A stretch of DNA of 64,000 bases, from NCBI GenBank assembly GCA_963744145.1, contig CAVUSO010000001.1:1248001-1312000 (forward strand), read 5' to 3'. The stretch is from an uncultured cyanobacterium. GTDB taxonomy: Bacteria; Cyanobacteriota; Cyanobacteriia; Cyanobacteriales; CAWUOF01. Positions 18,086 through 56,170 of the stretch are shown one piece after another. The notes beneath the pieces are model-generated. The model was not told the origin of the DNA, did not search any database, and worked only from the letters and a program-made list of their open reading frames with translations. Position 1 is the first letter of the stretch. Each line of letters begins with the position of its first letter. Both the position numbers and the translations under genes were made by a program.

Positions 18086-18102
18086 ACTAAGACTGTAATC
18101 AA

Positions 18103-27928: not shown

Positions 27929-28627
27929 TCAAACCTTGCTAATCCGACAAGCAAAGCATTTATAAGCTTGCTGACCCGATAGATTATCATAGTATTGGTC
28001 ATCAATAAGGATATTAGTCGGTTGATAGAGCGGGGTGCCGAGTTCGATCGCCATTTGCTGTTGAGGACCAAACCAGTTAGGGACAAAAATCGTATCCTCA
28101 CGAATGTGTTCCCAGAGCAACGCAGTACCTTCAATTGCTCCGCGCGGACTTTCCACTTTAATCAGGTCACCATTCTGAATTCCCTGTGCTTGAGCCGTCC
28201 TGGGGTGAATTTGAATCAGACGAATGCCATTCTTTTGTTTACCAGTATAAGTCCACTGAGTCACAGAATGGAAATGCACCACACTTGGGCGACCGGACAT
28301 CCCCATCAAGGGATATTGCTGGTGGACAGTTCCCGATGATTTCTGGCCAAGTTTGACCTTGTGGGTCACAGCCTGGGGATTGACCGGGTTTTGGACAAAT
28401 TCCGACAGATATAAAATCGAGGGATGTTGTCCCGTGACTTCGGGGTGGGTGTAAAAGCTTGGCAAGGCGTCATGTCCGGCTTTTGCTAATTGTTGTTGCA
28501 GGTTTGACGTATAGATTTCGATTTTGCCGCTCGGTGTCAGAAACCGTTTGCCTTTATTTCTCGGATCAAGCGATTCTACGGCTTTGTACCAGGAGGGGTG
28601 ATCTAAATAGAGTGTACTGACACCAGG
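27929..28627 (-). pseudogene. 3' half of the interrupted molybdopterin oxidoreductase
   Basis: Frame resumes PGVSTLYLDH...FLTPSGKIEIY and includes a molybdopterin dinucleotide-binding domain (HFHS, IHPRTA, GDLIKVESPRG). Confidence 0.9.
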
Positions 28628-28642
28628 TTGATACTCTCAGGT

Positions 28643-29947: not shown

Positions 29948-29981
29948 TTTTTGTTTCTTTTCTTTCTAATCTTAACTATAG

Positions 29982-32225: not shown

Positions 32226-32370
32226 CTATAGCTTATGTTTGACAAAAAGCAAGTCTTTGTGATCAAAACAATGTTAAGATTAAGAAATATTTTCAGGTGG
32301 TTAAAACCACTTGGGTCGTTTCCCTCTCAGGTCTAAAGAACCTGAGTTTCCCACTTACCATGTGTTTTTT

Positions 32371-34191
32371 ATGATCAACCGTGGGGCAGGGATAGCGTAA
32401 TGGTTCAGTTCGCTTCTCCAGGCGAGCTTGGGTCATCCCACCCATACCAGGCGTGTGTTGGACAAAGGTTGCCCAGAGGGTGCGGTAGTCTTTCCATGCG
32501 AGGGGAAAAGGCTGTGACCAGTATTCTGGTGGATGCTTCTGATCGAACTTCGCGGTCGCGTGCGCCAGATCAATCCAAATCTGCCAGTCGGGCCGAGATT
32601 CTCCCACAGGGGGAACCACTTGCTTTTGCCAGCGGATTGCCCGATCGTCCCGACGCATATAAACGGTTTCCATCTCAAAGCCACTTGTAACTGGCAAAAT
32701 AATATCAGCGTAGTAAGCTGACTCCTCCATAAACAAGCCGGTATAAACATAAAAATCTAATTGGCGATAGGCGGCTTGAACTTTCTGGTTACCAGCCGAA
32801 GCCAGTAAGGGATTGCCCTGGGTAACCAAAGCTTTTAGTGGGTAGGGCTTGCCCGTCAGAATTGCCTCCGCCAAGTAATCAGGACCCACAGGTAAAGCCA
32901 CATCTTTCGGCGGCACAGGGACAGCGATCGGTGGCAGGTTCAACCCACCGGGCCAGGTATTGTGCATAAAATTGCAGCCACCACCGGGAATGCCAATATT
33001 ACCGGTAATCGCTGCCAGGAAGGTTAAAGAACGATAGGTATCAAATGCACCGAGTTGGTGAGAAATCCCGGCATTACAAAAAATCGCCGCTGGTTTGGTG
33101 ACAGCATATGCCGTTGCCAGTTGACGGATTTTCACTTCAGGCACATCAGTTATTTCAGCAGCCCATTGAGTTGTGTATTTTTGGGCGATCAGATGGCGTT
33201 TGAGTAAGTCGAATCCTAATACCCATTTCGCCACAAAGTCAGCATCGTAGAGATTGTTGGTGACAATATGGTGCAACATACCCAACACCAATGCTAAATC
33301 AGTGTGGGGTTTGGGGGCAATCCATTCATCTGCTTGGGCACCAGTGGGGGTCAAGCGTGGATCAATTACCACCAACCTAGCCTTGGTTTGAGCGCGACTG
33401 CGGAGCAGGTAAGAAAATGTCACGGGATGGGTTTCGGCTTGGTTAGTACCCAAAAAGAGGAAGAATTTCGCTGCGCCTAAATCTTCTTTCCCCGTTGCAC
33501 CATCAACGCCATAGCCATTGGTGAAATTGCCCATCCCGAGGGTCCAGGCTAAGGCATTTCCCCCAGCATCGTTACACACTGGCCCCACATCGGTATCATT
33601 GGGACTCCCTAACAGGGTGAAGTATCGCCCAACTAACGATCCGGTGCCACGGGGCAGTCGGCCAGAAGTCTTGTTGGCGATCGCCCTAGCTTCTCCCCCA
33701 TCCCTCAATGCCAGGAATTTCTTCGCGATCGTTTCTAGAGCTTCATCCCAAGAAATGGGGGCAAACTGAGAATCGGACGCTCCTTTCTCACCTCCAACCC
33801 GCTTCAGCGGGTGAGTTAAGCGAAATCGGTTATACACCAATTGGGTCATCATCGGCCCTTTGACACAGAAGCCACCTGCTTGTACCGGATCATCGGGTTC
33901 CCCAACTACATCAATAATGCGACCATCTTTGACATGCACTTTCAAGCGACAAAGACTATTACAAAACTGACAAGCGCTATCAACAATCCGATCGGGTTGC
34001 AGTGCGCCCGATTGCTGGGTAAAGTCAAACTCCACCCCTGGAGTTTGACTCGCTGGATAAAACCCTTCACTAGCAACAGCCTCTACCCTATCCTGCTTCT
34101 TTAATAAGTCTGTGCTAGTTACGACTGCTGCACTGAGTGCAACTCCTTTGAGGAAGTCCCGCCGGGAGGAGCTTTTTTGATGAGATGACAT
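32371..34191 (-). pseudogene. 5' half of a Tat-exported molybdopterin oxidoreductase (DMSO reductase superfamily), interrupted by an IS
   Basis: SRRDFLK Tat motif, CQFCNSLC...C 4Fe-4S motif, RLTHPLKR and ISWDEAL; cut after PCPTVDH. Confidence 0.9.
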
Positions 34192-36703: not shown

Positions 36704-36803
36704 ATATTACTCCTTTACCAAGACCAGCTTTTTTAACCAGGCTTCAATCTCAACAGAGACATAACAGCAACATGGGGACTGAGTTACTGTTTTGACCTGA
36801 GAG

Positions 36804-36885
36804 TGGGCGAGGAGAGAATCGAACTCTCATACCTTTCGGTGCCACATTTTGAGTGTGGTGCGTCTACCAGTTTCGCCACCCGCCC
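36804..36885 (-). tRNA. trnL: tRNA-Leu(CAA)
   Basis: GGGCGGGTGGCGAAACTGGTAGACGC, anticodon arm CCACA-CTCAAAA-TGTGG, long variable arm, GTTCGATTC. Confidence 0.95.
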
Positions 36886-37738: not shown

Positions 37739-37846
37739 GCTGAAAAAATCACTAAAAAGTTTTTAATGCCAGTCAATTTGTCAAATTTTAACATTTATTG
37801 ACTAACGTTGATTTCCGTTGTCCTCCTCAGCAACACTATTTATTTT

Positions 37847-38545
37847 ATGCACCAGAAAACACTTGTGCCGAGCGCTTGCCATGAGCGTAGTCGAAGGGTA
37901 GTCGAGGCATTACAGATATTTCATCGTCAATCTCCCGTGAGTGTGCTTGGTCCTGGTCAGCGAGCTGTTGTGTGGGTACAGGGCTGTCAGTTTGCTTGCA
38001 AAAACTGTATTGTCCCTGATTCTTGGGATGAGAAAGGTGGAGAATTGGTAACAGTAGCAGAGTTAAGCGATTGGATCTTAGCACAACCTGGAATAGAGGG
38101 TGTTACATTCTCTGGAGGGGAACCGATGCTACAAGCTGAGGCGCTATCTAAGCTGGTAGAATGTGTGAGAAATAAATCCAATTTAGGGGTAGTATGTTAT
38201 ACAGGCTATCGCTTAGAGCATCTACAACAGCAAGGGACATCAGCCCAGCAAGCCTTATTGCACCAAATTGACTTGTTAATAGATGGAGTTTATCTCGAAC
38301 AACAACATAGAGACTTACTGTGGAGAGGATCTGCTAATCAACGATTATTGCCATTAACAGAACGCTATCAAGCACTAATTGCTAATCTGCTTGATCAGGG
38401 CGATCGCTCAGTAGGACTAGAGTTTTTTATGGAAGAAACTGGAGAACTTGGGTTTGTGGGAGTACCTAATCAACCAGGTTTTTACCAAGAGTTTGTATCT
38501 CGAATGTTAAATCGTGGAGTAATGATCAACCCGATCAAACAATAA
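37847..38545 (+). CDS. NrdG/PFL-activase-like radical SAM (4Fe-4S) protein
   Basis: LGPGQRAVVWVQGCQFACKNC, GVTFSGGEP, YTGY, DLLIDG and WRGSANQ motifs; 16-aa repeat-derived insert near the N-terminus. Confidence 0.88.
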   Translation: MHQKTLVPSACHERSRRVVEALQIFHRQSPVSVLGPGQRAVVWVQGCQFACKNCIVPDSWDEKGGELVTVAELSDWILAQPGIEGVTFSGGEPMLQAEALSKLVECVRNKSNLGVVCYTGYRLEHLQQQGTSAQQALLHQIDLLIDGVYLEQQHRDLLWRGSANQRLLPLTERYQALIANLLDQGDRSVGLEFFMEETGELGFVGVPNQPGFYQEFVSRMLNRGVMINPIKQ

Positions 38546-38564
38546 AGTTCTTGCAAAAATAACT

Positions 38565-38800
38565 AGGACAGGCAAGATGCCTGTCCCACAACAAAAAAAA
38601 ACTCTTGTGGGACAGGCATCTTGCCTGTCCAATAAATTGATCAACATGACTTTTGCCTTCTTGTCTAATAAAGTTCAGTCAACCGTAGGGGCGAAGCATT
38701 CGGGCGACAACTAATCGGATCAGCCCGTTAACACTATATCCGAATGCTTCGCCCATTCTTTGCCGATATCCCCCAAAATACTCTTAAGTGAACCATATTG
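38565..38800. repeat. REP-like palindromes inside the operon
   Basis: GGACAGGCAAGATGCCTGTCCCACAA...TTGTGGGACAGGCATCTTGCCTGTCC and GTAGGGGCGAAGCATTCGG...CCGAATGCTTCGCCC. Confidence 0.85.
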
Positions 38801-38821
38801 CCCGATAAAGGAGAAAAACTG

Positions 38822-40111
38822 ATGAGTGGTAGTCCAAAACATACCCCAGCAGAGTTAGAAAGACGAAGACAGGAACAGCTAGAAAAAGAACGACAACGTA
38901 AAGCCAAAGAAGAAGCAAGACAAAGAGCAGCAGCAGCAGAGAGAGAAAGACTTCAGCGGTTGGAGACTCTCAGAAACCAGTTAATTGCCCAAGTTCAGGC
39001 GATCGCTTCACAAGTGCAGCAACAACAAAATAATATATATAGTGAGGATGGAACAGCACTCCAGAAACGCTGTCAGAATTTGCGTGATACTCTGGGTCAA
39101 GCCCAAACCGAATCTCAACTCCAGAAGATAGCCCAAGCATCACCTCAGATTGAACAAGATTTGCATAAAGCGGTTAGTCGCAAACGTCGAGATGAGGAGG
39201 AGAAAAAGCGACGGTTAGAATTAGAAAAACAACAGTTTGAACTAGAGGAATTAGAGCGACAAATTTCTCAAATTCCTAAAGCGGATGCAACTAAATTTGA
39301 TGCTAATGGATATGCAACAGTACAGCAAGCAATTGGAACAGTAAAAACCGCGATCGCAAGTAGTAATCCGGAAAGCGTCCGCGCACCCCTAGCTAATGCT
39401 ATAAAAGCATTACAAGATCATACCAATTTAGTAATCCAACATCGAACCGAATGGCTGCAACGTAAAGCTGAAGCGGAACAAGCTATTGGTGAACTTCAAG
39501 CATTTATTGTGGGATTAAGAGCTGATCCAGTAGTGATGCGGTGGCACGGACATACTATAACTGAATTGGAAACTCAAGCACAAACAGCAGTGCAAGCCTT
39601 AGCAGCAGAACAGTTTGAGCAACCCGCCAATATTCTAGCAGTAGCCCAGACGCGAGGACAGCAAATCGTAGAAGAAGCTAATGCCGAGCAAATTAAAGCT
39701 GACCAACGGGATTATATTGCTACCAGTATTGCTCAAACCTTGCAAGACATGGGTTTTATCGTTAGTCCTCCTCAAGCTGAATATGCTGATCATCCAAAAA
39801 CAGCCATGATTTTAAAAGCAGCTACTGCTTCAGGTAAAGGAATTAGTGTCAGTGTTCCAGTAGAAGGTGAAGTCTGGTACGACGTAGATGGATATACCAA
39901 AAGTACCGAAGCAGTTGTTGGTGGTGGTAATGCTGCGGTATGCGATGAAGCGGAACAGGTTTTAACCGATATGCACACTGCTTTAGAGGCAGAATTTGGC
40001 GTTAAAATGGGTGAAATTTCTTGGGAAGGAAAAGACCCTAACCGCAAACCGCGTAAAGCGGATGGACTACCTAATAACGATCAACAGCAGGGTAGAGGAG
40101 GTAATCGATGA
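38822..40111 (+). CDS. Coiled-coil protein with a globular C-terminal domain (unknown function)
   Basis: AAAGGAG SD, MSGSPK start, long Q/E/R-rich heptads, C-terminal LQDMGF...C...FGV; stop overlaps the next ATG. Confidence 0.8.
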   Translation: MSGSPKHTPAELERRRQEQLEKERQRKAKEEARQRAAAAERERLQRLETLRNQLIAQVQAIASQVQQQQNNIYSEDGTALQKRCQNLRDTLGQAQTESQLQKIAQASPQIEQDLHKAVSRKRRDEEEKKRRLELEKQQFELEELERQISQIPKADATKFDANGYATVQQAIGTVKTAIASSNPESVRAPLANAIKALQDHTNLVIQHRTEWLQRKAEAEQAIGELQAFIVGLRADPVVMRWHGHTITELETQAQTAVQALAAEQFEQPANILAVAQTRGQQIVEEANAEQIKADQRDYIATSIAQTLQDMGFIVSPPQAEYADHPKTAMILKAATASGKGISVSVPVEGEVWYDVDGYTKSTEAVVGGGNAAVCDEAEQVLTDMHTALEAEFGVKMGEISWEGKDPNRKPRKADGLPNNDQQQGRGGNR

Positions 40112-42093
40112 ATAGCTCAACTCCCACATCTTCCCGCTGGATTCTCGAATTTGAGAAACAAGTCCATCGCCGTCTGCATATTGTTTTGTATGGTAATATT
40201 CACGACCAGTTTCTCTGGCGCGGTAATTATCAAAATATCCACGAATTTCTCACCGCATACTTTCAAGACTTAAACTTTGAGCTAATTCTTCGGTATGACC
40301 CCATAGATGGGTTTAATTTTGTCAATCCAAAAATGAGACAGGGATTTGATGAATTAGTACGAAGTGGGGTAGCTAAACGGAACCCAGATTTAGGACAAAA
40401 TCCCCCAGTACCTTCACCAGCTCCAAATCCAATGGCACCTCCTCCAAGAGCTAATCCGGGTGCTGTGGGTCCTTCCCTAAATACTAGAGTCTCACCAGAG
40501 GATGCTTTTGGTAATTTGCGAGCTGTCGTATCTCAATCTAAAACTTCAGTAGCTGCAATTGTTGATTTAGGAGATATGCTCACCTCTGATCCAAGTCGCT
40601 ATATTGCTGAAGAGCGAAACGCTTTGGTGTTACTGAATAAATGCACCCTAGAAGCATCTGTGATCAGAGAGGGGGCTTTGAGCGGTTATCGCAATACTTT
40701 GGTGATTTTAGCTAGGGATTTGAAACGGGTGCCAGAGTGGTTTCATCAAAATAATCCCTTTGTCGGGATGGTGCAAATGTCGCGTCCCAATAAAGACGAA
40801 CGATGTCAGTTTATGATGCGTTTTTTCCAGGGATTTTATGAAGGCGATCGCATCAATACTAAACGCTCTTCTCCTCAAGCACCTTCAGAGCTAGAAATTC
40901 TCGCAGAAGAATTTGCTGATCTCACCGAAGGCTTTCGAGCAATGGATTTAGATGCGTTGCGTGCGACTTCTTGGCGTGAGCGCATTCCTCTCCGTGTTAA
41001 AGAAGTCTGGCGGTTAGTGGACTTTTTTAAATTTGGTCTACGGGATGATCCTTGGGAGCAGTTAAGCCCCGAAAAAGTTCGCTCTGCTAGAGAACAACTT
41101 TCTCGCACTGTGATTGGTCAACCTCGTGCAGTTGAATCTGTTACTACTATGCTCACTAGCGCAAGGGTGGGATTGAGCATAAGTAGTAGTGGTCGTAGTG
41201 GCAAACCTAAAGGTATTTTCTTTTTTGTTGGTCCGACAGGAGTTGGCAAAACTGAACTAGCCAAAGCTATGACCAAATTAGTGTTTGGCGATGAGCGATC
41301 GTTTGTCCGTTTTGATATGAGTGAGTACAAAGAAGAACACGCGGCTGAGAAATTAGCAGGCGCTCCTCCCGGTTTTGTGGGTTATGAAGAAGGGGGACAG
41401 CTAACCAATCGCGTGATTGAGCAGCCCTATAGTATTTTGCTGTTTGATGAAATTGAAAAAGCTCATCCCAAGGTGTTAGATAAGTTTTTGCAAATTTTAG
41501 AAGATGGAAGGCTTACTGATGGTAAAGGACAGACTGCTTATTTCAACCAAACTGCAATTATTTTTACTAGCAATATCGGCGCATCGGATTTAACTGATCC
41601 TCAGACAGGTGCGATCGTTCGGTGTGGGATTATGAACAAAGTGCAGCAAGGAAATACTAATGATTTCTCTTACGAAGAGGTAGAAAATCACTTCCGAACT
41701 GAAGTAGATTGGCACTTTACCAGTCGCATTGGTCGGGCGGAACTGCTCAACCGTTTGGGTGATAATATTGTGGTATTTGACTTGCTACGTCCAGATTTTG
41801 TGACTTTAATTGGGCAGAAGTTTTTACGACAACTATCAGATACAGCTCAGGAAAAGTACCGACTCAATTTAAACTTTTTGCCTTCAGTTCTAGATGTTTT
41901 GAGGGTGCGGATGGAACAAGGTAACAATTTACTATTCGGAGGAAGACGGATTAAAACCCTTTTAGAATCATTAGTGGAACGTCCCCTCAATAGTTGGATT
42001 TTTCAAAATTGCCCTGAAACCAGTAAATTAGCAGGGGGCACATTGAGGATTGGGATGACAGTTGATGGATGTTTAGAGGTGACTCATGTTTGA
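40108..42093 (+). CDS. ClpA/B-like AAA+ ATPase with one intact (D2-type) nucleotide-binding domain
   Basis: VIGQ, FFFVGPTGVGKTELAK, RFDMSEY, GAPPGFVGYEEGGQLT, LLFDEIEKAH and DGRLTDGKG motifs; no Walker A in the N-terminal half. Confidence 0.9.
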   Translation: MNSSTPTSSRWILEFEKQVHRRLHIVLYGNIHDQFLWRGNYQNIHEFLTAYFQDLNFELILRYDPIDGFNFVNPKMRQGFDELVRSGVAKRNPDLGQNPPVPSPAPNPMAPPPRANPGAVGPSLNTRVSPEDAFGNLRAVVSQSKTSVAAIVDLGDMLTSDPSRYIAEERNALVLLNKCTLEASVIREGALSGYRNTLVILARDLKRVPEWFHQNNPFVGMVQMSRPNKDERCQFMMRFFQGFYEGDRINTKRSSPQAPSELEILAEEFADLTEGFRAMDLDALRATSWRERIPLRVKEVWRLVDFFKFGLRDDPWEQLSPEKVRSAREQLSRTVIGQPRAVESVTTMLTSARVGLSISSSGRSGKPKGIFFFVGPTGVGKTELAKAMTKLVFGDERSFVRFDMSEYKEEHAAEKLAGAPPGFVGYEEGGQLTNRVIEQPYSILLFDEIEKAHPKVLDKFLQILEDGRLTDGKGQTAYFNQTAIIFTSNIGASDLTDPQTGAIVRCGIMNKVQQGNTNDFSYEEVENHFRTEVDWHFTSRIGRAELLNRLGDNIVVFDLLRPDFVTLIGQKFLRQLSDTAQEKYRLNLNFLPSVLDVLRVRMEQGNNLLFGGRRIKTLLESLVERPLNSWIFQNCPETSKLAGGTLRIGMTVDGCLEVTHV

Positions 42094-43327
42094 TTTGGAA
42101 TTGCTGTGGGATCGACCCGCAAAAATTAGCTCTCAATCGACAACTCATGTGCTGCGATCGCGGATCTATCCTCAATCGGTCGGAAATGCTTTACCTAGCT
42201 TACCCCTACGGATCGCGATCGCTCTCGATACTAGCCAATCAATGCAAGGGGAAAAGCTACAATGTGCTAAGGAAGCTTGCCGTGCGGTTGTTTCTCATTT
42301 ACGTGACACAGATCGCTTATTTCTAGCAGGTTTTTCTACGAGAGTAACACCTTTACTACAATCTCTTACAGGTGGTGCTAATGCTGTTTCATCGGCTAAT
42401 ACAGCGATCGCTAGTTTGCAACCAGAGGGAGTTACTCGCACCGATTTGGCATTAGAATGGATTCAGAATGCCTTACCAAAGGAAACTGGAGTCACAAGAG
42501 TGGGGATTTTGATTACAGATGGTCATGCGACTACTCCCCAAGGTAATCTATTAGATGACGTAACGCCGCTAATTAACCAATCTAGCCAACTGAGTAGTGC
42601 TGGAATTGTGCTGTGTACTGTAGGATTAGGAGATGCAGCTAATTTTAATACAGCTTTTTTAACTGATTTGAGCGACAAGGGAAGGGGTGCGTTTCTCTAT
42701 GCTGACACACCAACTATCCTAAAATCTCTACTCCAAGAAAGACTGGCTGCTTGTCAAGCGATCGCGACGGAAGAAGCTAAACTCCGATTCACTCTAAGTT
42801 CTGGTGTTACCCTCAAAGGTTTTTGTCGTTTCCGTCCCGAATATTTACCTTTGGAAGAAACTGCAAAAAATGAATTAACACTGGGTACGATCGGAACAAA
42901 CTCCCCAACCGATGTATTAATTGACTTAGAAATTCCAGCAAGTGGTTTTGGAGAACCAATGGGTAGTCGAGAAGTAGTTTCAGTCCAGTTAACAGCTAGA
43001 GGAATGACCAACCCGATTACTAAGACAGCAGCGATTACCTATACTAATTCCTACTCAGAAGCGCAAAAAGTTAACGCTGAAGTCAATAACGATCGACTCT
43101 GTTGGGATATTAACGTTTATAGTAATGACCTAACCCGCACTAACGATCCGAAGCGCACAGGAGAATTACTAGATAATATCCAGTTTACAGCTACCCAAGC
43201 CGGACAAGCAAATATTGCGAACCAAGCAGCTCAACAGCTAGATGATCTGAAAAAGACTGGAGTATTGAACCCCCACAAATCAACTGGACTCTTGCGGGAT
43301 TCTCGAAATTTGGGAGGGACAAAATGA
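42086..43327 (+). CDS. von Willebrand factor A domain protein
   Basis: MIDAS DTSQS, ILITDGH and TVGLG motifs. Confidence 0.9.
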   Translation: MFDLELLWDRPAKISSQSTTHVLRSRIYPQSVGNALPSLPLRIAIALDTSQSMQGEKLQCAKEACRAVVSHLRDTDRLFLAGFSTRVTPLLQSLTGGANAVSSANTAIASLQPEGVTRTDLALEWIQNALPKETGVTRVGILITDGHATTPQGNLLDDVTPLINQSSQLSSAGIVLCTVGLGDAANFNTAFLTDLSDKGRGAFLYADTPTILKSLLQERLAACQAIATEEAKLRFTLSSGVTLKGFCRFRPEYLPLEETAKNELTLGTIGTNSPTDVLIDLEIPASGFGEPMGSREVVSVQLTARGMTNPITKTAAITYTNSYSEAQKVNAEVNNDRLCWDINVYSNDLTRTNDPKRTGELLDNIQFTATQAGQANIANQAAQQLDDLKKTGVLNPHKSTGLLRDSRNLGGTK

Positions 43328-43728
43328 ATAGTGGTTTTGGGATCGACCCCATTCCTGGGTTATCTCGACTTACCCCGGATAATGCTAAGTTACTATTATT
43401 AAACGGACCAGCAGCAGCAAGTCGGTTTCCTCTTCATCGAATACGATCGCTGATTGGTCGGAATGATCTACCTTTGATAACAGTAGATATTGATCTAACT
43501 GAATGCGAAATTGGCGATCCAATTGCTATATCTCGTCGTCATGCAGTGATTGAGTGGGTAGAAGGGGAATTACAAATTGTGGATTTGTGCAGTAGGAACG
43601 GTACTTTTGTTGATGGTCAAAAATTGACAGCGATCGCTCCTAATCAACCATCAGCTCCTGTCATTTTAAAAGCGGGAAGTAAGGTAAAACTAGGAAACTT
43701 GGAATTTGAGGTGATCACTCATGGATAA
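43324..43728 (+). CDS. FHA domain protein
   Basis: IGR, ISRRHA and DLCSRNGTFVDG motifs. Confidence 0.93.
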   Translation: MNSGFGIDPIPGLSRLTPDNAKLLLLNGPAAASRFPLHRIRSLIGRNDLPLITVDIDLTECEIGDPIAISRRHAVIEWVEGELQIVDLCSRNGTFVDGQKLTAIAPNQPSAPVILKAGSKVKLGNLEFEVITHG

Positions 43729-44518
43729 GCCGATTGTAAAACTAGCCTACGGTTCCAAAACCGATCCTGGCAAAATTCGTAAAATCAATGAAGATAATCT
43801 TTTATTAGAATCATGGTCAGATGCTTTACTAGCAGTAGTTGCTGATGGAATGGGAGGACATAAAGGAGGAGAGGTAGCAGCCAAAATTGCCGTTGATACT
43901 TTTCGAGAGTTATTAGATCAGCCCTTACCTAAAGAACCTGTTGAACGATACGAACAACTGTTAAAAAAATTTTATGATGCTGATACTGCTATCCGCGAGC
44001 AATCCTCTCAAGAGTTCAGATTGATGGATATGGGAACTACTTTAATGGCAGCGATCGTTACTCCCACAGAATATATTCATCTATATGCTGGTGACTGTCG
44101 TTTATATCACTTCCACCAGGGAGAATTTACTTATATCTCGGCTGATCATTCAGTAGTCAGGATACTGCAAAACTTGGGAAAGATCACCCCAGAAGAAGCA
44201 GCTACTCATCCAATGCGTTCAGTGGTCAACTCCTGTCTAGGTGGTAAGGGAAATACACAATTCTCTGTTGACCCAAAATGGGACGATGAAAAGTTACCTG
44301 TGTTGCGTGAATTATGTCCAGGTGATGTATTACTACTATGCAGCGACGGACTAAATAGCGAAGTAAGTGACAATCAGTTACAAAATTTGGTGCAACAGTC
44401 TGGAAACTCGACCGAAGAACTGACTAAAGCTTGTGCCGAAGCAGCTTTAGAGCATGGTGGTAAAGATAATATTACAGTTATTGCTATTCAGGTACAGGAG
44501 GAAGATCAGCAAAAATAA
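43721..44518 (+). CDS. PP2C/Stp1-type Ser/Thr phosphatase
   Basis: RKINED, VADGMGGH, MGTT, GDCR, CSDGL and GGKDNIT motifs. Confidence 0.95.
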   Translation: MDKPIVKLAYGSKTDPGKIRKINEDNLLLESWSDALLAVVADGMGGHKGGEVAAKIAVDTFRELLDQPLPKEPVERYEQLLKKFYDADTAIREQSSQEFRLMDMGTTLMAAIVTPTEYIHLYAGDCRLYHFHQGEFTYISADHSVVRILQNLGKITPEEAATHPMRSVVNSCLGGKGNTQFSVDPKWDDEKLPVLRELCPGDVLLLCSDGLNSEVSDNQLQNLVQQSGNSTEELTKACAEAALEHGGKDNITVIAIQVQEEDQQK

Positions 44519-44575
44519 GACAAAATTATCAGCAGAAATAGATAGCAAACTTTAACTAATTGGATTGAAAAGTAT

Positions 44576-46000
44576 ATGAACAATGAGCAACTATACCGAC
44601 GAATGTTGGAAGGACAATGGGTCAATGGACAATATCATCTCAAAAAACTCCTGGGAGCAGGAAGTTACGGAGTAGTTTTTCAAGCAGATGAAGTAGTCGG
44701 AAATCGCCTAGTTCGAGAAGTAGCTATTAAACTAATTTCTCCCAATGATGATGATCGCGATCTCCAGCTCCAAGAATTAATTGATGCAGTTAATTTAGAT
44801 CACCCCAATTTAGTGCGATGCTTTACTTCTGGTTTAGTTAAACTCAACGGAGTTGAATTTTTATATTTAGTCATGGAGCTAGCCCAAAAAACTCTCGCTA
44901 AACATTTAGAAAAAAGCTCTTTGTCTGTAGGAGAAGTGCAAAAAATCGTCCAGGAAATTGCTGCTGGATTAGTTTATCTTCATCGTGAACCCCATCCGCG
45001 AGTGCATCGTGATTTGAAACCAGCTAATGTCCTATGGGTAAGCGATCGCTGGAAATTATCAGATTTTGGGTTATTGCGGTCAACTGGTTCTAAGGGTTCA
45101 GCTCGCACCAGTAAAGTTAGGAGAACTGACGGTTATGCTCCCCCAGAAGCTTATCTCGGAGTGGTGGCTCCCACTTGGGATGTGTGGTCATTAGGGGTGA
45201 TCATGGTGGAAATGCTCACGGGACAGCTACCCTTTACAGGAGATACAGAGCAGGAATTGATCGTAAAAGTAATGGACGGAAAACCATCAATCGAATGGTC
45301 AAAAGTCCACCAATCATTCAGAGAGATCATCAAGGGAGCTTTAGAGAAAGAGCGGAAAGACCGATGGACGGCACAAAGGGTGCTGAATACTTTTACCAAA
45401 AAATATCTCCCTCCAACCATCCCATCTATTGTGAGTCCATTTCCTGGGAAAATAGAAATAGGACAGAATCCTTTTACCGCAAAAGGTATCCCTCTATTTG
45501 ACCCAACTCCAAGCATAGTGAGTCAGCCTCCTGTGCAATTGAAGTCAGCAAAAGGGGTAGATTACACTAATTTACAACGCTTACTAGCCGCAGGAAAATG
45601 GAAGGAAGCGGATGAGGAAACAGGCAAAAAAATGTGCGAGGTCATGGGGCGACAAAAAGAAGGTTGGCTAGATGTCGAACATATCGATAATTTTCCCTGT
45701 GAAGACCTTCGCACAATTGATCAACTTTGGGTAAAATCTAGTAACGGTCATTTTGGCTTTTCTGTGCAAAAGCGTATCTATCAAAGTCTCGGTGGAACCC
45801 GGAACTATGATGAGAAAATCTGGGCTGCTTTTGGCGATCGCGTCGGCTGGAGGAAAAATGGAGACTGGATATACTACAGCGACCTCACCTTCTCAACCAA
45901 ATCTCCCGGTGGCCACCTCCCCTTGTGGTGGGGGAAAGGTCCGTGTGTGGTGGTTGGTGCCTCTTCTCTCGCGTCGAGACTTGTAGACTGTAACATATAA
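44576..46000 (+). CDS. Ser/Thr protein kinase-GUN4 domain fusion, copy 1
   Basis: LGAGSYG, VAIK, HRDLKPAN, DFG, APPE; GUN4 motifs WKEADEET, FPCEDLRTIDQLW, SNGHFGFSVQ, GHLP. Confidence 0.93.
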   Translation: MNNEQLYRRMLEGQWVNGQYHLKKLLGAGSYGVVFQADEVVGNRLVREVAIKLISPNDDDRDLQLQELIDAVNLDHPNLVRCFTSGLVKLNGVEFLYLVMELAQKTLAKHLEKSSLSVGEVQKIVQEIAAGLVYLHREPHPRVHRDLKPANVLWVSDRWKLSDFGLLRSTGSKGSARTSKVRRTDGYAPPEAYLGVVAPTWDVWSLGVIMVEMLTGQLPFTGDTEQELIVKVMDGKPSIEWSKVHQSFREIIKGALEKERKDRWTAQRVLNTFTKKYLPPTIPSIVSPFPGKIEIGQNPFTAKGIPLFDPTPSIVSQPPVQLKSAKGVDYTNLQRLLAAGKWKEADEETGKKMCEVMGRQKEGWLDVEHIDNFPCEDLRTIDQLWVKSSNGHFGFSVQKRIYQSLGGTRNYDEKIWAAFGDRVGWRKNGDWIYYSDLTFSTKSPGGHLPLWWGKGPCVVVGASSLASRLVDCNI

Positions 46001-48031: not shown

Positions 48032-49456
48032 ATGAACAATGAGCAACTATGGCGAATGTTAGCAGGAGAATGTGTCAACGGACAATATCACCTCAAAAAA
48101 CTCCTGGGTGTCGGCAGTTACGGCGCAGTTTTTCAAGCAGATGAAGTGGTCGGCGATCGCCTAGTTCGAGAAGTAGCTATTAAGATAATTTCCCCAGATA
48201 ATGATGAAAAAACCCGCGATCGCCAGCTCCAAGAATTGATTGTCGCGGTTAATTTAGATCACCCGAATTTAATCCGTTGTTTTGCTCCAGGGTTAGCTCA
48301 AATTAAAGGATTTGAATTTTTGTATTTGCTAATGGAGTTAGCAGAAGAAACCCTCGCTAAACGTCTAGAAAAAAGTTCTTTGTCATTGGAAGAAGTACAG
48401 AAAATAGTTCAAGAAATAGCTGCCGGATTAGTTTATCTTCATCGTGAACCCCATCCGAAAGTACATCGTGATTTGAAGCCCGCTAATGTACTACGAGTGG
48501 GCGATCGCTGGAAATTATCAGATTTTGGCTTATTGCGCTCAATCGATTCTCAGGGTTCAGCTCGCACTAGTAAAGGTCAGGGAACTAACGGCTATGCTCC
48601 CCCAGAAGCTTATGATGGAGTAGTTGCTCCAGCTTGGGATGTGTGGTCATTAGGAGTAATCATGGTGGAACTGCTCACGGGACAGCTACCCTTTACAGGA
48701 GATACAGAGCAGGAATTGCTCAAAAAAGTAATGGAGGGTAAACCATCAATCGAATGGTCAAAAGTCCACCAATCATTCAGAGAGATGATCAAGGGAGCTT
48801 TAGAGAAAGAGCGGCAAAACCGATGGACGGCAGAAATGGTGCTGAATACTTTTACCAAAAAAGATCTCCCTCCAACTACCCCATCCATTGAGAGTCAGCC
48901 TCCTTTGCAATTGAAGTCAGCAAAAGGAGTAGACTACACTAATTTACAACGCTTACTAGCCGCAGGGAAATGGAAAGAAGCGGATGAGGAAACAAGCAAA
49001 AAAATGTGCGGGGTCATGGGGCGACAAGAAGAAGGTTGGTTAAGAAGCGAAGATATTGATAATTTTCCCTGCGAAGACCTTCGCACAATTGATCAACTTT
49101 GGGTAAAATCTAGTAACGGTCATTTTGGCTTTTCTGTGCAAAAGCGCATCTATCAAAGTCTCGGTGGAACCCGGAACTATGATGAGAAAATTTGGGAAGC
49201 TTTTGGCGATCGCGTTGGCTGGAGGAAAAATGGAGCTTGGATATACTACAGTGACCTCACTTTCTCAACCACTTCTTTGGTGGGCCATATCCCTGGGTTA
49301 CCACTTCTTTGTTTGGAGGGCTATCTCCCTGTTGTATTGGTGGTGAGTGTTTGGATAGGTAAAGAGGTTTTTTGGGTTGTCTCTTCTCTCGCGTCGAGAC
49401 TTGTAGACTCTTCTCCAAGCCAGGCGCATTCTGATTCAGATATCATCCTATTGTAA
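48032..49456 (+). CDS. Ser/Thr protein kinase-GUN4 domain fusion, copy 2
   Basis: Same kinase and GUN4 motifs as copy 1. Confidence 0.93.
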   Translation: MNNEQLWRMLAGECVNGQYHLKKLLGVGSYGAVFQADEVVGDRLVREVAIKIISPDNDEKTRDRQLQELIVAVNLDHPNLIRCFAPGLAQIKGFEFLYLLMELAEETLAKRLEKSSLSLEEVQKIVQEIAAGLVYLHREPHPKVHRDLKPANVLRVGDRWKLSDFGLLRSIDSQGSARTSKGQGTNGYAPPEAYDGVVAPAWDVWSLGVIMVELLTGQLPFTGDTEQELLKKVMEGKPSIEWSKVHQSFREMIKGALEKERQNRWTAEMVLNTFTKKDLPPTTPSIESQPPLQLKSAKGVDYTNLQRLLAAGKWKEADEETSKKMCGVMGRQEEGWLRSEDIDNFPCEDLRTIDQLWVKSSNGHFGFSVQKRIYQSLGGTRNYDEKIWEAFGDRVGWRKNGAWIYYSDLTFSTTSLVGHIPGLPLLCLEGYLPVVLVVSVWIGKEVFWVVSSLASRLVDSSPSQAHSDSDIILL

Positions 49457-50226: not shown

Positions 50227-51235
50227 ATGCAAGACAAACCCCGCGCCGACTACGATAGTCCTTGGAAAGAAGCCATTAACAGTTACTTTGAACCTTTCAT
50301 GAATTTTTTCTTTCCGGTCATCCATCAAGAAATCGACTGGACAAAAGGCTATGAAACCTTAGATGCAGACTTACAAGAAGTCGTAAGAGATGCAGAAACG
50401 GGGAATCGTTTAGCCGATAAGCTCGTGAAAGTTTGGTTAAATCATAGCACCCAGGAAATTTTAATCCTGGTGCATATCGAAATCCAAGGAGGAGTAGATC
50501 CGAACTTTGCGAAACGGATGTTTATCTACAATCACCGTTTATTTGACCGATACGATCGAGAAGTGATTAGTTTAGCAGTATTAGGAGATGAGCAAAAATC
50601 CTGGCGTCCCAATAGTTATGGTTATGCAATGTGTGGATTTAGTAGCCAATTGCAGTTTCCCATCGTCAAACTCTTAGACTACCAAGAACAATGGGAGTTG
50701 CTTGAACAAAGCACTAATCCTTTTGCTGTAATTGTCATGGCACATTTAACTGCAAAGGAAACCACCAGAGATCCACAAAGAAGATTACAAGGGAAACTCA
50801 GCATAGTGCGGGGGCTATATGAACGGGGCTATAATAGGGAGGAAATCAAGCGAACTATTTCGGTTAATTGACTGGATGATGGTATTACCAGACCAGCTAG
50901 AACAGGATTTTCGGGTGGAATACAAACGGTTTCAGGAGGAAAATCAAGTGCCATATATCACCAGTATTGAACGTTTAGCGAAAGCAGAAGGTAGAGAAGA
51001 AGGCTTAGAAGAAGGGATCGAACAAGGAATCGAACAAGGAATCGAACGAGGCAGTGTACAAACAGCACAGGAAAATATCATCACAGTGTTGGAGACTAGG
51101 TTTGGAGAAGTACCAGAAATCTTCAGAGAGCGGATTAATCAAATCGAAGATTTAGCCACATTAAGACAACTTCTCATTCGTGGCATTACGATCGCTTCTT
51201 TCGAGGATTTTGAGCAAGAAATCTCTTCAAATTAG
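50227..51235 (+). pseudogene. Rpn-family (PD-(D/E)XK) gene frameshifted near 50848
   Basis: YDSPWKE, ADKLVKV, HIEIQ, RMFIYN, NPFA, then ELFRLIDWMM...PYITSIER...GIEQ repeats in the other frame. Confidence 0.85.
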
Positions 51236-51376: not shown

Positions 51377-52699
51377 ATGAACAATGAGCAACTGTGGCGA
51401 ATGTTGACAGGAGAATGTGTCAATGGACAATATCACCTCAAAAAACTCCTGGGCGTCGGCAGTTACGGCGCAGTTTTTCAAGCGGATGAAGTTGTTGGCG
51501 ATCGCTTAATTCGCCAAGTAGCTGTTAAGCTAATTTCTCCAGATGGAGATGATAAAAATCGCGATCGCCAGCTCCAAGAATTAATTACTGCCGTTAATCT
51601 AGATCACCCGAATTTAGTACGCTGCTTTACTTCAGGGTTAGCTGAAATCAAAGGATTTGAATTTTTGTATTTAGTCATGGAGTTAGCAGAAGAAACCCTC
51701 ACCAAAAGTCTTTCAGAAAAAAGCTCTTTGTCTGTGGGAGAAGTGCAAAAAATAGTTGAGGAAATAGCTTCAGCATTGGTTTATCTTCATCATGAACCCG
51801 AGCGGAGAGTACATCGCGATTTGAAACCAGCTAATGTACTAAGAGTAGGCGATCGCTGGAAATTATCAGATTTTAGCTTATTGCGGTCAATCGGTTCTAA
51901 GGGTTCAGCTCGCACCAGTAAAGGTCAGGGAACTAACGGCTATGCTCCTCCAGAAGCTTATGATGGAGTAGTTGCTCCAGCTTGGGATGTGTGGTCATTA
52001 GGAGTAATCATGGTGGAACTGCTCACGGGACAGCCACCCTTTACAGGAGATACAGAGCAGGAATTGATCAAAAAAGTCATGGAGGGTAAACCATCAATCG
52101 AATGGTCAAAAGTCCACCAATCATTCAGAGAGATGATCAAGGGAGCTTTAGAGAAAGAGCGGAAAGACCGATGGACGGCAGAAATGGTGTTGAATACTTT
52201 TAAAGAGCGCCCGACCATATTACCGTCAGCAGATTACCAAAAGTTAGAAAGCTTACTAGCCGCAGGAAAATGGGAAGAAGCTGATCAGGAAACAGCAAAA
52301 AAAATGTGCGCGGTAATGGAGCGAGAAAAAGAAGGTTGGCTAAGACCCGAAGATATTGATAATTTTCCCTGCGAAGACCTTCGCACAATTGATCAACTTT
52401 GGGTACATTATAGCAATGGTCATTTTGGCTTTTCCGTGCAGAAGCGGATCTATCAAAGTCTGGGTGGAACTTGCAACTACGATCAAAACATTTGGACTGC
52501 TCTTGGCGATCGCGTTGGTTGGAGGCAAAATGAACAATGGCTATACTACAATGATCTCACATTCTCAGTCGAAAATTCTCCCGAAGGCCATCTTCCATTG
52601 GGAGTGAGAAAAGCGATTTGGCGCGGTTGTGGTTTTGCAGGTTGGTTTGGTCTTTGTGGCACTTCTCTCGCGTCGAGACTTGGAGATTGTAACATCTAA
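51377..52699 (+). CDS. Ser/Thr protein kinase-GUN4 domain fusion, copy 3
   Basis: Same motifs, but DFG reads DFS and the linker is short. Confidence 0.93.
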   Translation: MNNEQLWRMLTGECVNGQYHLKKLLGVGSYGAVFQADEVVGDRLIRQVAVKLISPDGDDKNRDRQLQELITAVNLDHPNLVRCFTSGLAEIKGFEFLYLVMELAEETLTKSLSEKSSLSVGEVQKIVEEIASALVYLHHEPERRVHRDLKPANVLRVGDRWKLSDFSLLRSIGSKGSARTSKGQGTNGYAPPEAYDGVVAPAWDVWSLGVIMVELLTGQPPFTGDTEQELIKKVMEGKPSIEWSKVHQSFREMIKGALEKERKDRWTAEMVLNTFKERPTILPSADYQKLESLLAAGKWEEADQETAKKMCAVMEREKEGWLRPEDIDNFPCEDLRTIDQLWVHYSNGHFGFSVQKRIYQSLGGTCNYDQNIWTALGDRVGWRQNEQWLYYNDLTFSVENSPEGHLPLGVRKAIWRGCGFAGWFGLCGTSLASRLGDCNI

Positions 52700-53351: not shown

Positions 53352-53958
53352 ATGGTTATGCAATGTGTGGATTTAGTAGCCAATTGCAGTTTCCCATCGT
53401 CAAACTCTTAGACTACCAAGAACAATGGGAGTTTTTGGAACAAAGTACCAATCATGAAAGCAGTAATTGTCATGGCACATTTAACAGCAAAGGAAACCAC
53501 CAGAGATCCACAAAGAAGATTACAAGGGAAACTCAGCATAGTGCGGGGACTATATGAACGGGGCTATAATAGGGAGGAAATCAAGCGAACTATTTCGGTT
53601 AATTGACTGGATGATGGTATTACCAGACCAGCTAGAACAGGATTTTCGGGTGGAATACAAACGGTTTCAGGAGGAAAATCAAGTGCCATATATCACCAGT
53701 ATTGAACGTTTAGCCAAAGCAGAAGGTAGAGAAGAAGGCTTAGAAGAAGGGATCGAACAAGGAATCGAACGAGGCAGTGTACAAAATTCACGGGAAAATA
53801 TCATCACGGTGTTGGAGACTAGGTTTGGAGAAGTGCCAGAAATCTTCAGAGAGCGGATTAATCAAATCGAAAATTTAGCCACATTAAGACAACTTCTCAT
53901 TCGTGGCATTACGATCGCTTCTTTCGAGGATTTTGAGCAAGAAATCTCTTCAAATTAG
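53352..53958 (+). pseudogene. 5'-truncated second copy of the Rpn-family gene
   Basis: Near-identical to about 50618-51235, including the same frameshift. Confidence 0.85.
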
Positions 53959-54096: not shown

Positions 54097-55488
54097 ATGC
54101 ACGATCAGCAACTGTGGCGAATCTTAGAAGGAGAATGTGTCAACGGACAATATCATCTCAAAAAACTATTAGGAGTAGGAGGCTTTGGAGGAGTTTTTCA
54201 AGCAGATGAAGTGGTCGGCGATCGCCTAGTTCGAGAAGTAGCTATTAAGCTAATTTCCCCAGATAGTGATGAAAAAAATCGCGATCGCCAGCTCCAAGAA
54301 TTGATTGATGCTGTTAATCTAGATCACCCCAATTTAGTGCGATGCTTTACTTCTGGTTTAGTTGAAATCAAAGGGTTTAAATTTTTGTATTTAGTAATGG
54401 AACTAGCCCAAGAAACCCTGGCTAAACGTCTAGAAAAAAGCTCTTTGTCGGTGGAAGAAGTGCAAAAAATCGTCCAGGAAATCGCTGCTGGATTGGTTTA
54501 TCTTCATCATGAACCCGATCCGAAAGTACATCGCGATTTGAAGCCTGCTAATGTACTAAGAGTAGGCGATCGCTGGAAATTATCAGATTTTGGCTTATTG
54601 CGTTCAATCGGTTCTAAAGGTTCAGCTCGTACCAGTAAAGGTGGGGGAACTTACAGCTATGCTCCCCCAGAAGCTTATGACGGAGTAGTTGCTCCAGCTT
54701 GGGATGTATGGTCATTAGGAGTAATCATGGTGGAAATGCTCACAGGACAGCTACCCTTTACAGGAGATACAGAGCAGGAATTGATCGTAAAAGTAATGGA
54801 GGGTAAACCATCAATCGAATGGTCAAAAGTCCACCAATCATTCAGAGAGATGATCAAGGGAGCTTTAGAGAAAGAGCGGAAAGACCGATGGACAGCAGAA
54901 ATGGTGCTGAATACTTTGACCGGACTAACCCCAACTCGTCCAACAGAAAGCCAGCAGACTGTATCCTTGAAGTCAGCAAAAGGAATAGATTACACTAATT
55001 TACAATGCTTACTAGCCGCAGGGAAATGGGAGGAAGCTGATGAAGAAACATATAAAAAAATGTGCGAGGTCATGGGACGACAAAGAGAAGGTTGGCTAGA
55101 TGTCGAACAGATCGATAATTTTCCTAGTGAAGACCTTCGCACAATTGATCAACTTTGGGTAAAATCTAGTAACGGTCATTTTGGCTTTTCTGTGCAAAAG
55201 CGCATCTATCAAAGTCTGGGTGGAACCCAGAACTATGATCAGACAATTTGGGAAGCTTTTGGCGATCGCATCGGTTGGAGGAAAAATGGATACTGGATAT
55301 CTACCAGTAAACACACCTTCTCAAAGGATTCTCCCGTTGGCCATCTCCCCTCGGCGAGGTGGGGGCGCGATTGGGGTACTATGGTGGCGGCGGCGGCTGT
55401 GTGGGGGTGGCGTTATTTTATCGGGGGGGAAGGGATTTTTGATGGTTTTAAATGTGGGTGGTCTCTTCTCTCGCGTCGAGACTTGTAA
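54097..55488 (+). CDS. Ser/Thr protein kinase-GUN4 domain fusion, copy 4
   Basis: Same motifs; terminates in an alternative frame of the conserved 3' anchor (SLLSRRDL*). Confidence 0.93.
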   Translation: MHDQQLWRILEGECVNGQYHLKKLLGVGGFGGVFQADEVVGDRLVREVAIKLISPDSDEKNRDRQLQELIDAVNLDHPNLVRCFTSGLVEIKGFKFLYLVMELAQETLAKRLEKSSLSVEEVQKIVQEIAAGLVYLHHEPDPKVHRDLKPANVLRVGDRWKLSDFGLLRSIGSKGSARTSKGGGTYSYAPPEAYDGVVAPAWDVWSLGVIMVEMLTGQLPFTGDTEQELIVKVMEGKPSIEWSKVHQSFREMIKGALEKERKDRWTAEMVLNTLTGLTPTRPTESQQTVSLKSAKGIDYTNLQCLLAAGKWEEADEETYKKMCEVMGRQREGWLDVEQIDNFPSEDLRTIDQLWVKSSNGHFGFSVQKRIYQSLGGTQNYDQTIWEAFGDRIGWRKNGYWISTSKHTFSKDSPVGHLPSARWGRDWGTMVAAAAVWGWRYFIGGEGIFDGFKCGWSLLSRRDL

Positions 55489-55864: not shown

Positions 55865-56170
55865 TCAAATTTCGCGATTTCTATTTTTCCAGTAATTCGG
55901 TTTGCGTCTGCTATGCGCGATCGCCATAACCAAAATCTCTTCTTCTAGCTCTGTATAGAAAATTACATAGGGAAACCTTTGAATAGGATAACGGCGTATT
56001 CCTTGAATATGGTGCAAAGCTCCTAAGTTGGGGTTGTCCTGAATTTTAAGCAGGCTTTTTTCTACTTCAGACAACAAATCTAATCCCAAGCCTACTTGTT
56101 GAGTTTCATAGTAAGCTATTGCAGCGTCAAGCTCTGCCCGAGCTTCAATGTGGATACTAATAAACTTCAC
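55865..56170 (-). CDS. RelE/ParE-family toxin
   Basis: EARAELDAAIAYYE...GLG...RFPYVIFY...AIAHSRRKPNYW. Confidence 0.9.
   Translation of the reverse strand: MKFISIHIEARAELDAAIAYYETQQVGLGLDLLSEVEKSLLKIQDNPNLGALHHIQGIRRYPIQRFPYVIFYTELEEEILVMAIAHSRRKPNYWKNRNREI

Follow-up and report, generated by a model that had tools for sequence, protein, structure and literature searches.

Seven neighbouring genes are the subject of this report. They lie on the forward strand of a 64,000-nucleotide stretch of DNA, the window, from an uncultured cyanobacterium with a 7.7 Mb genome (GenBank assembly GCA_963744145.1, contig CAVUSO010000001.1, positions 1,248,001 to 1,312,000). In order, they encode a radical-SAM enzyme, a helical protein here called CC, an AAA+ ATPase, a vWA protein, an FHA protein, a PP2C phosphatase and a Ser/Thr kinase fused to a GUN4 domain. 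This cassette appears to be an undescribed, horizontally mobile system, apparently new within the known conflict systems that are gated by an NTPase or a chaperone. Its core of unfoldase, radical-SAM enzyme and helical protein is a real, conserved and apparently undescribed combination.

A first-pass annotation of the window had listed seven co-oriented genes, and the open reading frame (ORF) listing bears this out at the same coordinates. The four start/stop overlaps that it gave, of 4 and 8 nucleotides (40108-40111, 42086-42093, 43324-43327 and 43721-43728), are exact. Each of its domain assignments is supported by Pfam, except that CC belongs to no family.

Genes of the cassette

The ATPase (40108..42093, forward strand) is 661 amino acids long. 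From its sequence and a structural model it is predicted to be two-tiered, with an inactive AAA+ domain followed by an active module of the ClpB-D2 type. The second module matches Pfam AAA_2 at 1e-49 (residues 366-550), against only 1.7e-6 for PF00004. Its Walker A (GPTGVGKT), Walker B (DEIEKA) and pore-loop (GFVGY) motifs are present in the sequence and fall in invariant columns.

The first-pass annotation had described this protein as having only a D2-type module. That is true for Pfam alone. Residues 1-330 have no Pfam match, but they are conserved in 146 protein clusters and are modelled as a degenerate AAA+ domain (predicted local distance difference test score, pLDDT, 76.7). When Foldseek compares this model with the PDB, it finds no fewer than 500 structures at E<=0.001, among which Vps4, ORC subunits, AFG2/Drg1, Msp1 and the m-AAA protease AFG3L2 rank first with a probability of 1.00; apo-FtsH is at rank 39. 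The first domain thus folds like the classical AAA clade, while the second is of the AAA_2 type. Because the Walker-A position of the first domain reads YGNIHD, this tier is taken to be inactive. A ClpP-docking tripeptide in the D2 loop was considered and rejected. The glycine is preceded by differing residues (C/R/E/D/N/S/K/P), and 4 of 21 sequences lack the loop altogether, so that there is no conserved hydrophobic-Gly-hydrophobic tripeptide and no ClpP docking site is seen.

CC (38798..40111, forward strand) is a helical-bundle protein encoded by a 437-amino-acid ORF; a 429-amino-acid form is found in the public protein collection. Profile scans with Pfam, NCBIfam and PADLOC place it in no family. 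The AlphaFold2 model (pLDDT 88.4) has helices through residue 309, followed by a C-terminal domain of five strands and a helix. A search of 1.84 billion proteins yields 461 representatives of the CC family at E<=1e-3, 309 at 1e-10 and 190 at 1e-30. Each representative stands for a sequence cluster at 50% identity, and together they come from at least four phylum-level groups. When 146 representatives are aligned, the most conserved residues are Cys374 (139/142), Trp401 (140/141), Trp241 (140/144) and Gly368 (136/140). A wide VIA structure search with CC finds generic helical bundles (EzrA, Z 8.4). Residues 295-397 match a KA1 domain at Z 7.9, which is a lead only, in a range that the tool calls unreliable. 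The best score for the C-terminal domain in the ESM Atlas is 0.88, with unnamed clusters.

The radical-SAM enzyme (37808..38545, forward strand) is listed with a TTG start; the ATG at 37847, which the first-pass annotation had used, may be the true one. It matches Pfam Fer4_12 at 4.2e-36 as well as Radical_SAM, and it contains both the CX3CX2C motif for the 4Fe-4S cluster and the GGE motif for SAM binding that define the superfamily. The CX3CX2C, GGEP and WRGSxNQR motifs are invariant in all 16 of the 16 cassette homologues, and we take them to resemble those of NrdG. In NCBIfam the best match is NrdG (TIGR02491), but at 110.8 bits it falls below the cut-off of 126.1. PADLOC adds weak pVip matches. 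No NrdD or glycyl-radical domain (PF13597, PF01228) is matched in the host genome, which is 96.3% complete, while the same two profiles have matches in 6/14 and 3/14 genomes used as positive controls. The enzyme can therefore be regarded as an orphan, activase-like protein.

Between the radical-SAM and CC genes lies a gap of 253 nucleotides, which is filled by two perfect hairpins (38563..38755, no strand assigned; stems of 26 bp and 16 bp; fold z-score -10.2). The hairpins are copies of a dispersed palindromic repeat. Its 21-nucleotide unit (present at window 38563-38633) has 212 copies in the genome, 107 of them forward and 105 reverse, against 0 for a control pattern; the copies are often paired and inverted so that they form long hairpins. 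The radical-SAM and CC genes are directly adjacent in relatives, and the gap in the window is a repeat insertion, not a cassette-specific element. A regulatory RNA at this place was rejected, as Rfam gave only sub-threshold microRNA-like matches and the hairpin is a dispersed repeat. Promoter and terminator scans gave signals at the level of shuffled sequence only.

The remaining genes could form a phosphorylation switch. The start of the vWA gene (42086..43327, forward strand; Pfam VWA, 2.4e-14) overlaps the stop of the ATPase gene. Its product has an intact metal-ion-dependent adhesion site (MIDAS) motif, DxSxS...T...D, with residues conserved in 8/8 orthologues, and a C-terminal extension of 200 amino acids. 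A conserved TGxL in this tail might, speculatively, be a site for the FHA protein. The vWA protein is matched by no PADLOC family, nor by the vWA-TerF-like family of Pfam. The small FHA protein, a reader of phospho-threonine (43324..43728, forward strand; Pfam FHA, 6.4e-14), has the GR, SxxH and NG motifs. The PP2C Ser/Thr phosphatase (43721..44518, forward strand) matches PP2C_2 at 4.5e-19 and, below the cut-off, NCBIfam Stp1_PP2C at 8.8e-57; in PADLOC its sole match is PDC-M21C.

The kinase-GUN4 gene is the first of four forward-strand copies. Copy 1 (44576..46000; Pkinase 1.5e-42, GUN4 3.5e-45) is followed by copy 2 (48032..49456; 83% identical to it), copy 3 (51377..52699; 79% identical to it) and copy 4 (54097..55488), which ends a tandem array whose units measure 2.7-3.5 kb. 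The catalytic motifs HRDLKPxN and DFG are intact. The PADLOC model PDLC04062, for PD-T4-6, spans the kinase-GUN4 protein end to end at 2.2e-69 (a raw E-value, taken without PADLOC's own thresholds), and mad6 also matches at the level of a domain. Small ORFs of 214, 138 and 134 amino acids without a Pfam family stand between kinase copies (window 50227-51235 and 53554-53958). A related ORF of 406 amino acids is found elsewhere in the genome (L122 13615-15998), beside an ATPase like SpoVK/CbbX with AAA_lid_6.

A constant core with exchangeable partners

Conservation was assessed over 30 loci in which a full-length relative of the ATPase is encoded. These are the window itself, two further sets of 11 and 13 loci, and 5 plasmids. 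The gene counts over these loci are lower bounds, since several loci end at a contig or locus edge. Because a scan of genome contigs relied on patterns from the generic D2 module, no more than 4 of its 80 loci proved to be full-length relatives. The metagenome scan contributed at least seven loci.

Of the 30 loci, 23 have a radical-SAM gene and 22 a CC homologue; a further locus has a weak CC match. CC, ATPase and radical-SAM enzyme can therefore be taken as a constant core, the triad. Other genes are found less often: a Ser/Thr kinase in 15 loci, vWA in 12 (plus two small TerF-like proteins), FHA in 11, a large superfamily 1 (SF1) helicase in 7 and PP2C in 6. In 10 loci the vWA gene comes directly 3' of the ATPase gene. 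The triad is the portable constant of the cassette. Beside it, at least four partner modules can stand in for one another, and the set of vWA, FHA, PP2C and kinase is one of these.

The kinase module occurs in three arrangements. In type A, that of the window, the order is radical SAM, CC, ATPase, vWA, FHA, PP2C, kinase; L124 has exactly this order, and L006, L127, L128 and L130 have part of it. In type A' a kinase gene is inserted between CC and ATPase, giving radical SAM, CC, kinase, ATPase, vWA. This is seen in a deltaproteobacterial locus (L007) and three genomes of its phylum (L164, L165 and L166), with FHA added in L165 and L166. In type A'', on an Aristaeella plasmid (Bacillota), the order is kinase, a 430-amino-acid protein that scores only 26% against CC, FHA, radical SAM, ATPase and PP2C, with another kinase farther along. 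The radical-SAM and ATPase genes are thus framed by those for FHA and PP2C. Both this interleaving in types A' and A'' and the translational coupling seen in the window speak for joint action of the phosphorylation module and the triad.

The other modules contain different partners. Type B consists of an SF1 helicase, a second protein, a small CC, the ATPase and the radical-SAM enzyme, and is carried by plasmids of Acinetobacter, Polaromonas and Photobacterium and by four genomes of the phylum of L007. The second protein is a PIN_4 nuclease in the plasmid operons and belongs to no Pfam family in L167 and L170. In type C (L113 and L114), a small vWA protein, an Hsp70-like protein and a coiled-coil protein of about 650 amino acids are encoded upstream of the triad; hhalign detects no homology between CC and the coiled-coil proteins of such Hsp70-type cassettes. 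In type D, on a Geminocystis plasmid, DO-GTPases are encoded between the radical-SAM and CC genes.

The first-pass annotation had proposed a single system, and the question was whether the gene order is kept elsewhere or the neighbourhood is due to chance. The order of the window recurs unchanged in L124 and in interleaved form in other phyla. So many unrelated genomes carry these genes together that the arrangement goes far beyond coincidence, as expected of one conserved cassette. Its context was confirmed in four phylum-level groups.

The distribution is sporadic. Strong matches to the N-terminal domain of the ATPase are found in 7 of the 401 cyanobacterial genomes sampled, the host included, and six of these seven also have full-length CC. 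In the phylum of L007, 4/301 genomes match this domain at E<=1e-90 and five more at about 1e-35 to 1e-39. Two distant ATPase relatives, from Clostridiaceae and alphaproteobacterial genomes, have no CC match. No match to the N-terminal domain was found in the phage collection.

Between genomes the kinases also differ in their C-terminal domain, which is GUN4 in the window, L115 and L116, TPR in L112, a beta-helix in L006 and FGE/FGS in L126. Arrays of three to six kinases occur in the window, L116 and L126. The first-pass annotation had seen the kinases as variable receptors. Between genomes this idea is supported, since the C-terminal domain is exchanged and arrays recur. Within the window it finds no support, as the four paralogues are 79-83% identical with an almost invariant GUN4 domain, and differ in the linker and the C-terminal tail. 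In L126 (485-14471 of a metagenome contig), six Ser/Thr kinases are each fused to an FGE-sulfatase (FGS, C-type-lectin-like) domain and are interleaved with the radical-SAM, ATPase and CC genes.

The host genome also contains a paralogous mini-cassette (contig 1 1431852-1435340; L122 7852-11340, reverse strand). It encodes an Hsp70-like protein of 591 amino acids, then a coiled-coil protein of 358 amino acids and no family, then an NrdG-like radical-SAM enzyme that is 42% identical to that of the window. This echoes the Hsp70-type loci L113 and L114, and its presence in the same genome suggests that a chaperone-type ATPase, a coiled-coil protein and an NrdG-like enzyme are a recurring theme. 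About 9 kb from the mini-cassette (contig 1 1444253-1444546, L140) is an ORF of about 509 amino acids with weak similarity (E 3.5e-7) to CC residues 244-338. Such ORFs are found in the window's genome (G000) and in G144 and G274.

Another cyanobacterial locus, L117 (G274, contig 1 4800000-4819900), has the ATPase, kinase, vWA, FHA and PP2C genes, and no CC or radical-SAM gene was found in it. The N-terminal domain of its ATPase matches in two pieces, so it may be a decaying copy.

Relation to described systems

The first-pass annotation had not recognised the combination as a named system. This agrees with the PADLOC profile scan, which gave matches at the level of domains only, and with full-text literature searches, which returned no description of a triad of radical-SAM enzyme, CC and ATPase. 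In RefSeq the plasmid copies are named 'hypothetical protein', 'AAA family ATPase' and '4Fe-4S single cluster domain-containing protein'.

Of the kinds already described, the FtsH-type MoxR-vWA ternary system comes nearest (Kaur, Burroughs, Iyer and Aravind 2020, PMC7159879). According to the passages of that paper on this class, such systems combine helical proteins and a vWA protein with a tandem AAA+ protein whose first domain is inactive. In a simple form, a radical-SAM enzyme is predicted to modify a separately encoded product. The class is described there as rare in cyanobacteria and enriched in multicellular bacteria. The cassette resembles this description in its inactive first AAA+ tier, its vWA, radical-SAM and helical proteins and its enrichment in multicellular bacteria. 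It differs in that it lacks the MoxR and the FtsH-type motor that such systems require, its own motor being of the Clp type, and has a vWA protein without the N-terminal helical domain. No MoxR-type AAA+ (AAA_3) is matched among the window ORFs scanned; in L114 a MoxR gene is nearby on the other strand. It is the description of these systems, rather than their member lists, that sets the cassette apart. The text of the supplement, which does not extend to the member lists, includes none of six cassette-protein accessions and neither 'FtsH' nor 'Radical'.

A second relative is found among tandem AAA+ proteins that are linked to PspA/IM30. The weaker relatives of the N-terminal domain in the phylum of L007 are tandem AAA+ proteins in which an inactive first tier precedes a classical PF00004 module. 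This first tier is homologous to that of the window's ATPase (hhalign 97.9%, E 4.9e-13, 272 columns). In 2/3 loci inspected the gene is directly downstream of PspA/IM30 (L179 7455-10037 and L180 7497-10089), and in the third (L178 4053-9850) a 914-amino-acid ORF stands between the two. By analogy, the pairs in L178-L180 may be seen as a bacterial counterpart of the pairing of ESCRT-III with Vps4, and a passage in an mSystems paper of 2024 mentions such a pairing and likens it to Snf7-Vps4 (PMC11237479). Both this family and the cassette have the inactive AAA+ domain and place the ATPase gene directly downstream of one for a long helical protein. However, the active module of the cassette is of the ClpB-D2 type (AAA_2) rather than classical AAA, its helical partner is not detectably PspA, and it adds a radical-SAM enzyme and the module of kinase, FHA, PP2C and vWA.

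The phosphorylation module has several parallels. TerY-P triads (vWA, PP2C and Ser/Thr kinase) are stand-alone modules, according to Anantharaman 2012 and Gao 2020 as cited in a passage of PMC11090510. The Esr pathway joins MoxR, vWA, kinase, phosphatase and FHA and is described as experimentally supported in the relevant part of PMC13622651, and the kinase-PP2C-vWA theme also appears in the passage of Kaur et al. on DO-GTPase systems (PMC7159879). From these accounts, the cassette shares with TerY-P and Esr the vWA, PP2C and kinase genes, an FHA reader and, putatively, a switch that senses threats by phosphorylation. As in TerY-P, PP2C and a Ser/Thr kinase are encoded in one operon. The C-terminus of the kinase is GUN4, not the zinc ribbon or OB fold of TerY-P; the vWA protein has an intact MIDAS but a generic VWA domain; and the PP2C matches nothing but PDC-M21C in PADLOC. 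The ATPase partner is Clp-like, not MoxR as in Esr.

In type VI secretion, the threonine-phosphorylation pathway of PpkA, PppA and Fha1 gates ClpV, and this ATPase of the ClpB family dismantles a helical sheath polymer. A kinase (there with vWA), a PP2C phosphatase, an FHA protein and a ClpB-family ATPase are thus common to both. However, the cassette's ATPase reaches 198 bits with TIGR03345 (ClpV/TssH), for which the cut-off is 885, and it has no active D1, and the sheath gene VipB has no match in the host genome.

Single components resemble other known proteins. Like NrdG and the activase of pyruvate formate-lyase, the radical-SAM enzyme is small and has the CX3CX2C, GGEP and WRGSxNQR motifs, but it falls short of the family cut-off, has no glycyl-radical partner matched in the genome and travels with the ATPase and CC. 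The helicase of type B matches PADLOC MkoA at 7.9e-93, which recalls Mokosh (MkoA helicase with a PLD nuclease). Type B differs in lacking MkoB or a PLD gene; in its plasmid operons a PIN protein follows the helicase. The ATPase core weakly matches DolB, the ClpB-like protein of Dodola, at 2.7e-18, as well as PDC-M37B, while DolA has no match among the ten window proteins scanned with PADLOC. Like DolA, the Mokosh helicase is absent from the window's own cassette.

A proposed signal-gated unfoldase and its rivals

The preferred reading, which we put at a probability of about one half, is that a signal-gated unfoldase remodels CC, and that the radical-SAM enzyme is a modifier or effector, in a conflict system. 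From the gene content, folds, catalytic motifs, conservation and exchange of partner modules, we infer the following functional steps, substrates and role. The Ser/Thr kinases, with their exchangeable C-terminal sensors (GUN4 in the window), would sense a disturbance and phosphorylate a component of the cassette. The FHA protein would read the resulting phospho-threonine, the vWA/MIDAS protein would act as an adaptor to the ATPase, and PP2C would reset the switch. Once activated, the ATPase may thread or disassemble CC. In the least certain step, the radical-SAM enzyme would either modify the C-terminal domain of CC, where Cys374 is the best candidate site, or be released as an effector. The first-pass annotation had likewise proposed that the ATPase, vWA and radical-SAM proteins act on CC.

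Two comparisons lie behind these steps. The set of kinase, PP2C, FHA and vWA is read as a resettable trigger because it resembles the switches of TerY-P, of MoxR-vWA/DO-GTPase systems and of Esr. Remodelling of the upstream-encoded CC is proposed by analogy with the PspA-linked tandem AAA+, whose first tier is homologous. The sister AAA+ beside PspA, Vps4 with ESCRT-III and ClpV with the type VI sheath could all serve as templates.

Conflict is most likely the biological role: the cassette would defend against phage or other invaders, and might do so by abortive infection. A role in conflict or signalling, as the first-pass annotation had suggested, fits the sporadic distribution of the cassette on islands and plasmids. 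Genes found next to cassettes include PIN/PrlF, HigB, ParE, Fic, HsdM, Schlafen-like, AAA_21 with DUF4276, NADAR-DarT1 and Uma2, as well as insertion sequence (IS) elements. On the Geminocystis plasmid, the neighbours are annotated as an anti-phage dCTP deaminase and a dGTPase. Defence genes of the toxin-antitoxin, restriction and nucleotide-depletion kinds are frequent among these neighbours. By our reading of scans or annotation, at least one defence-like or mobile neighbour is present in 9/14 loci, a qualitative count without a random-locus control.

Several observations weigh against this reading. The radical-SAM gene is undetected in 7 of the 30 loci. Of these, at least three are truncated near the cassette: L118 inside the ATPase gene, where its contig ends, and L116 and L128 a few kb upstream of the CC gene. 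No defence-like neighbour is seen in 5 of the 14 loci (L006, L009, L115, L117 and L118). Among the genes of the kinase-type cassette, none is recognisable as one for a toxin, nuclease or pore-former, which makes the identity of the effector a guess. The CC model has no Foldseek match at E<=0.001, and hhalign detects no homology between CC and PspA (probability 0.2%), nor does CC match the Pfam family PspA_IM30. A glycyl-radical site at the DVDGY hairpin of CC was also considered, and the case for it is weakened. Its glycine, Gly357, is kept in 128/142 sequences and replaced by Asn or Arg in type B, so a glycyl radical there is unlikely. Finally, the pairing of the sister AAA+ family with PspA, an envelope-stress protein, and the GUN4 domain, which points to photosynthetic status, would both suit a stress response better than immunity.

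The last point leads to the first rival, which is unlikely. Here the cassette would be a phosphorylation-controlled system for stress or membrane maintenance, a remodeller like PSP or ESCRT-III that serves tetrapyrrole or light stress rather than immunity. The inactive AAA+ tier common to the PspA-linked ATPases would then be explained, as would the missing classical toxin in kinase-type cassettes and the weak KA1-like match of the CC C-terminal domain (Z 7.9). GUN4 binds tetrapyrroles, according to a passage in PMC7159879. A maintenance function is harder to reconcile with a cassette found in just 7 of 401 cyanobacterial genomes, with copies on plasmids and with adjoining IS elements and toxin-antitoxin genes. 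It also does not account for the pairing with a Mokosh-like helicase and PIN nuclease in proteobacteria, or for the free exchange of sensor domains.

A second rival, distinctly unlikely, is that two independent systems stand side by side: a TerY-P-like switch of kinase, PP2C and vWA (with or without FHA), and a separate triad. The triad does occur without kinase, FHA and PP2C in L113, L114 and the helicase-type operons, and defence genes do cluster. TerY-P triads are moreover known as stand-alone modules in the passage of PMC11090510 cited above. Against this, translational coupling joins the ATPase, vWA, FHA and PP2C genes, vWA directly follows the ATPase in 10 loci, and the two gene sets are interleaved in differing orders in three phylum-level groups. 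It is highly improbable that the radical-SAM gene is an ordinary activase of anaerobic ribonucleotide reductase or pyruvate formate-lyase and a mere neighbour, as its best family match (NrdG) and the 253-nucleotide gap might suggest, because it scores below the NrdG cut-off, has no NrdD or glycyl-radical enzyme matched in a nearly complete genome, is separated from CC by a repeat insertion and accompanies the ATPase in 23/30 loci across phyla.

The signal-gated unfoldase can also be combined with protein-radical chemistry, in a version that goes further and is distinctly unlikely. The triad would then be an immune or stress effector of a new kind. CC would form a helical, possibly membrane-associated assembly like those of ESCRT-III or PspA, the unfoldase would open it in response to a signal, and the orphan NrdG-like activase would place a radical, or some other modification derived from one, near Cys374. 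CC would thereby become the agent that arrests the cell or the invader. If this were true, the triad would be a portable 'execution module' triggered by kinases, GTPases, Hsp70-like proteins or Mokosh-like helicases.

If the cassette is a defence system, it represents a widely spread family in which an activase of the glycyl-radical type, without a glycyl-radical enzyme, is coupled to a protein unfoldase. One core module that is plugged into four sensing modules would make the modular logic of bacterial immunity testable. The shared inactive AAA+ tier links the cassette to the PspA-associated ATPases and may relate ESCRT-III-like remodelling to immunity. The kinase-GUN4 array hints at how tetrapyrrole status could be linked to such a system in cyanobacteria.

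Several further features are found around the cassette. A tRNA-Leu(caa) gene (36803-36885, reverse strand) lies about 0.9 kb upstream of it, and a ParE toxin gene (55865-56170, reverse strand) directly downstream of the kinase array; these two may mark the borders of an island. Elsewhere in the window are a tmRNA gene and two tandem DUF3370 genes (listed at 20430-20818, reverse strand, and 16601-19633, forward strand). A molybdopterin oxidoreductase gene on the reverse strand (27929-34191) appears to be split into a Molydop_binding part (27929-28465) and an Fe4S4/Molybdopterin part (32293-34191). Between the two parts are an IS605-type TnpB gene (28643-29947) and a DUF4277 transposase-like gene (30243-31889).

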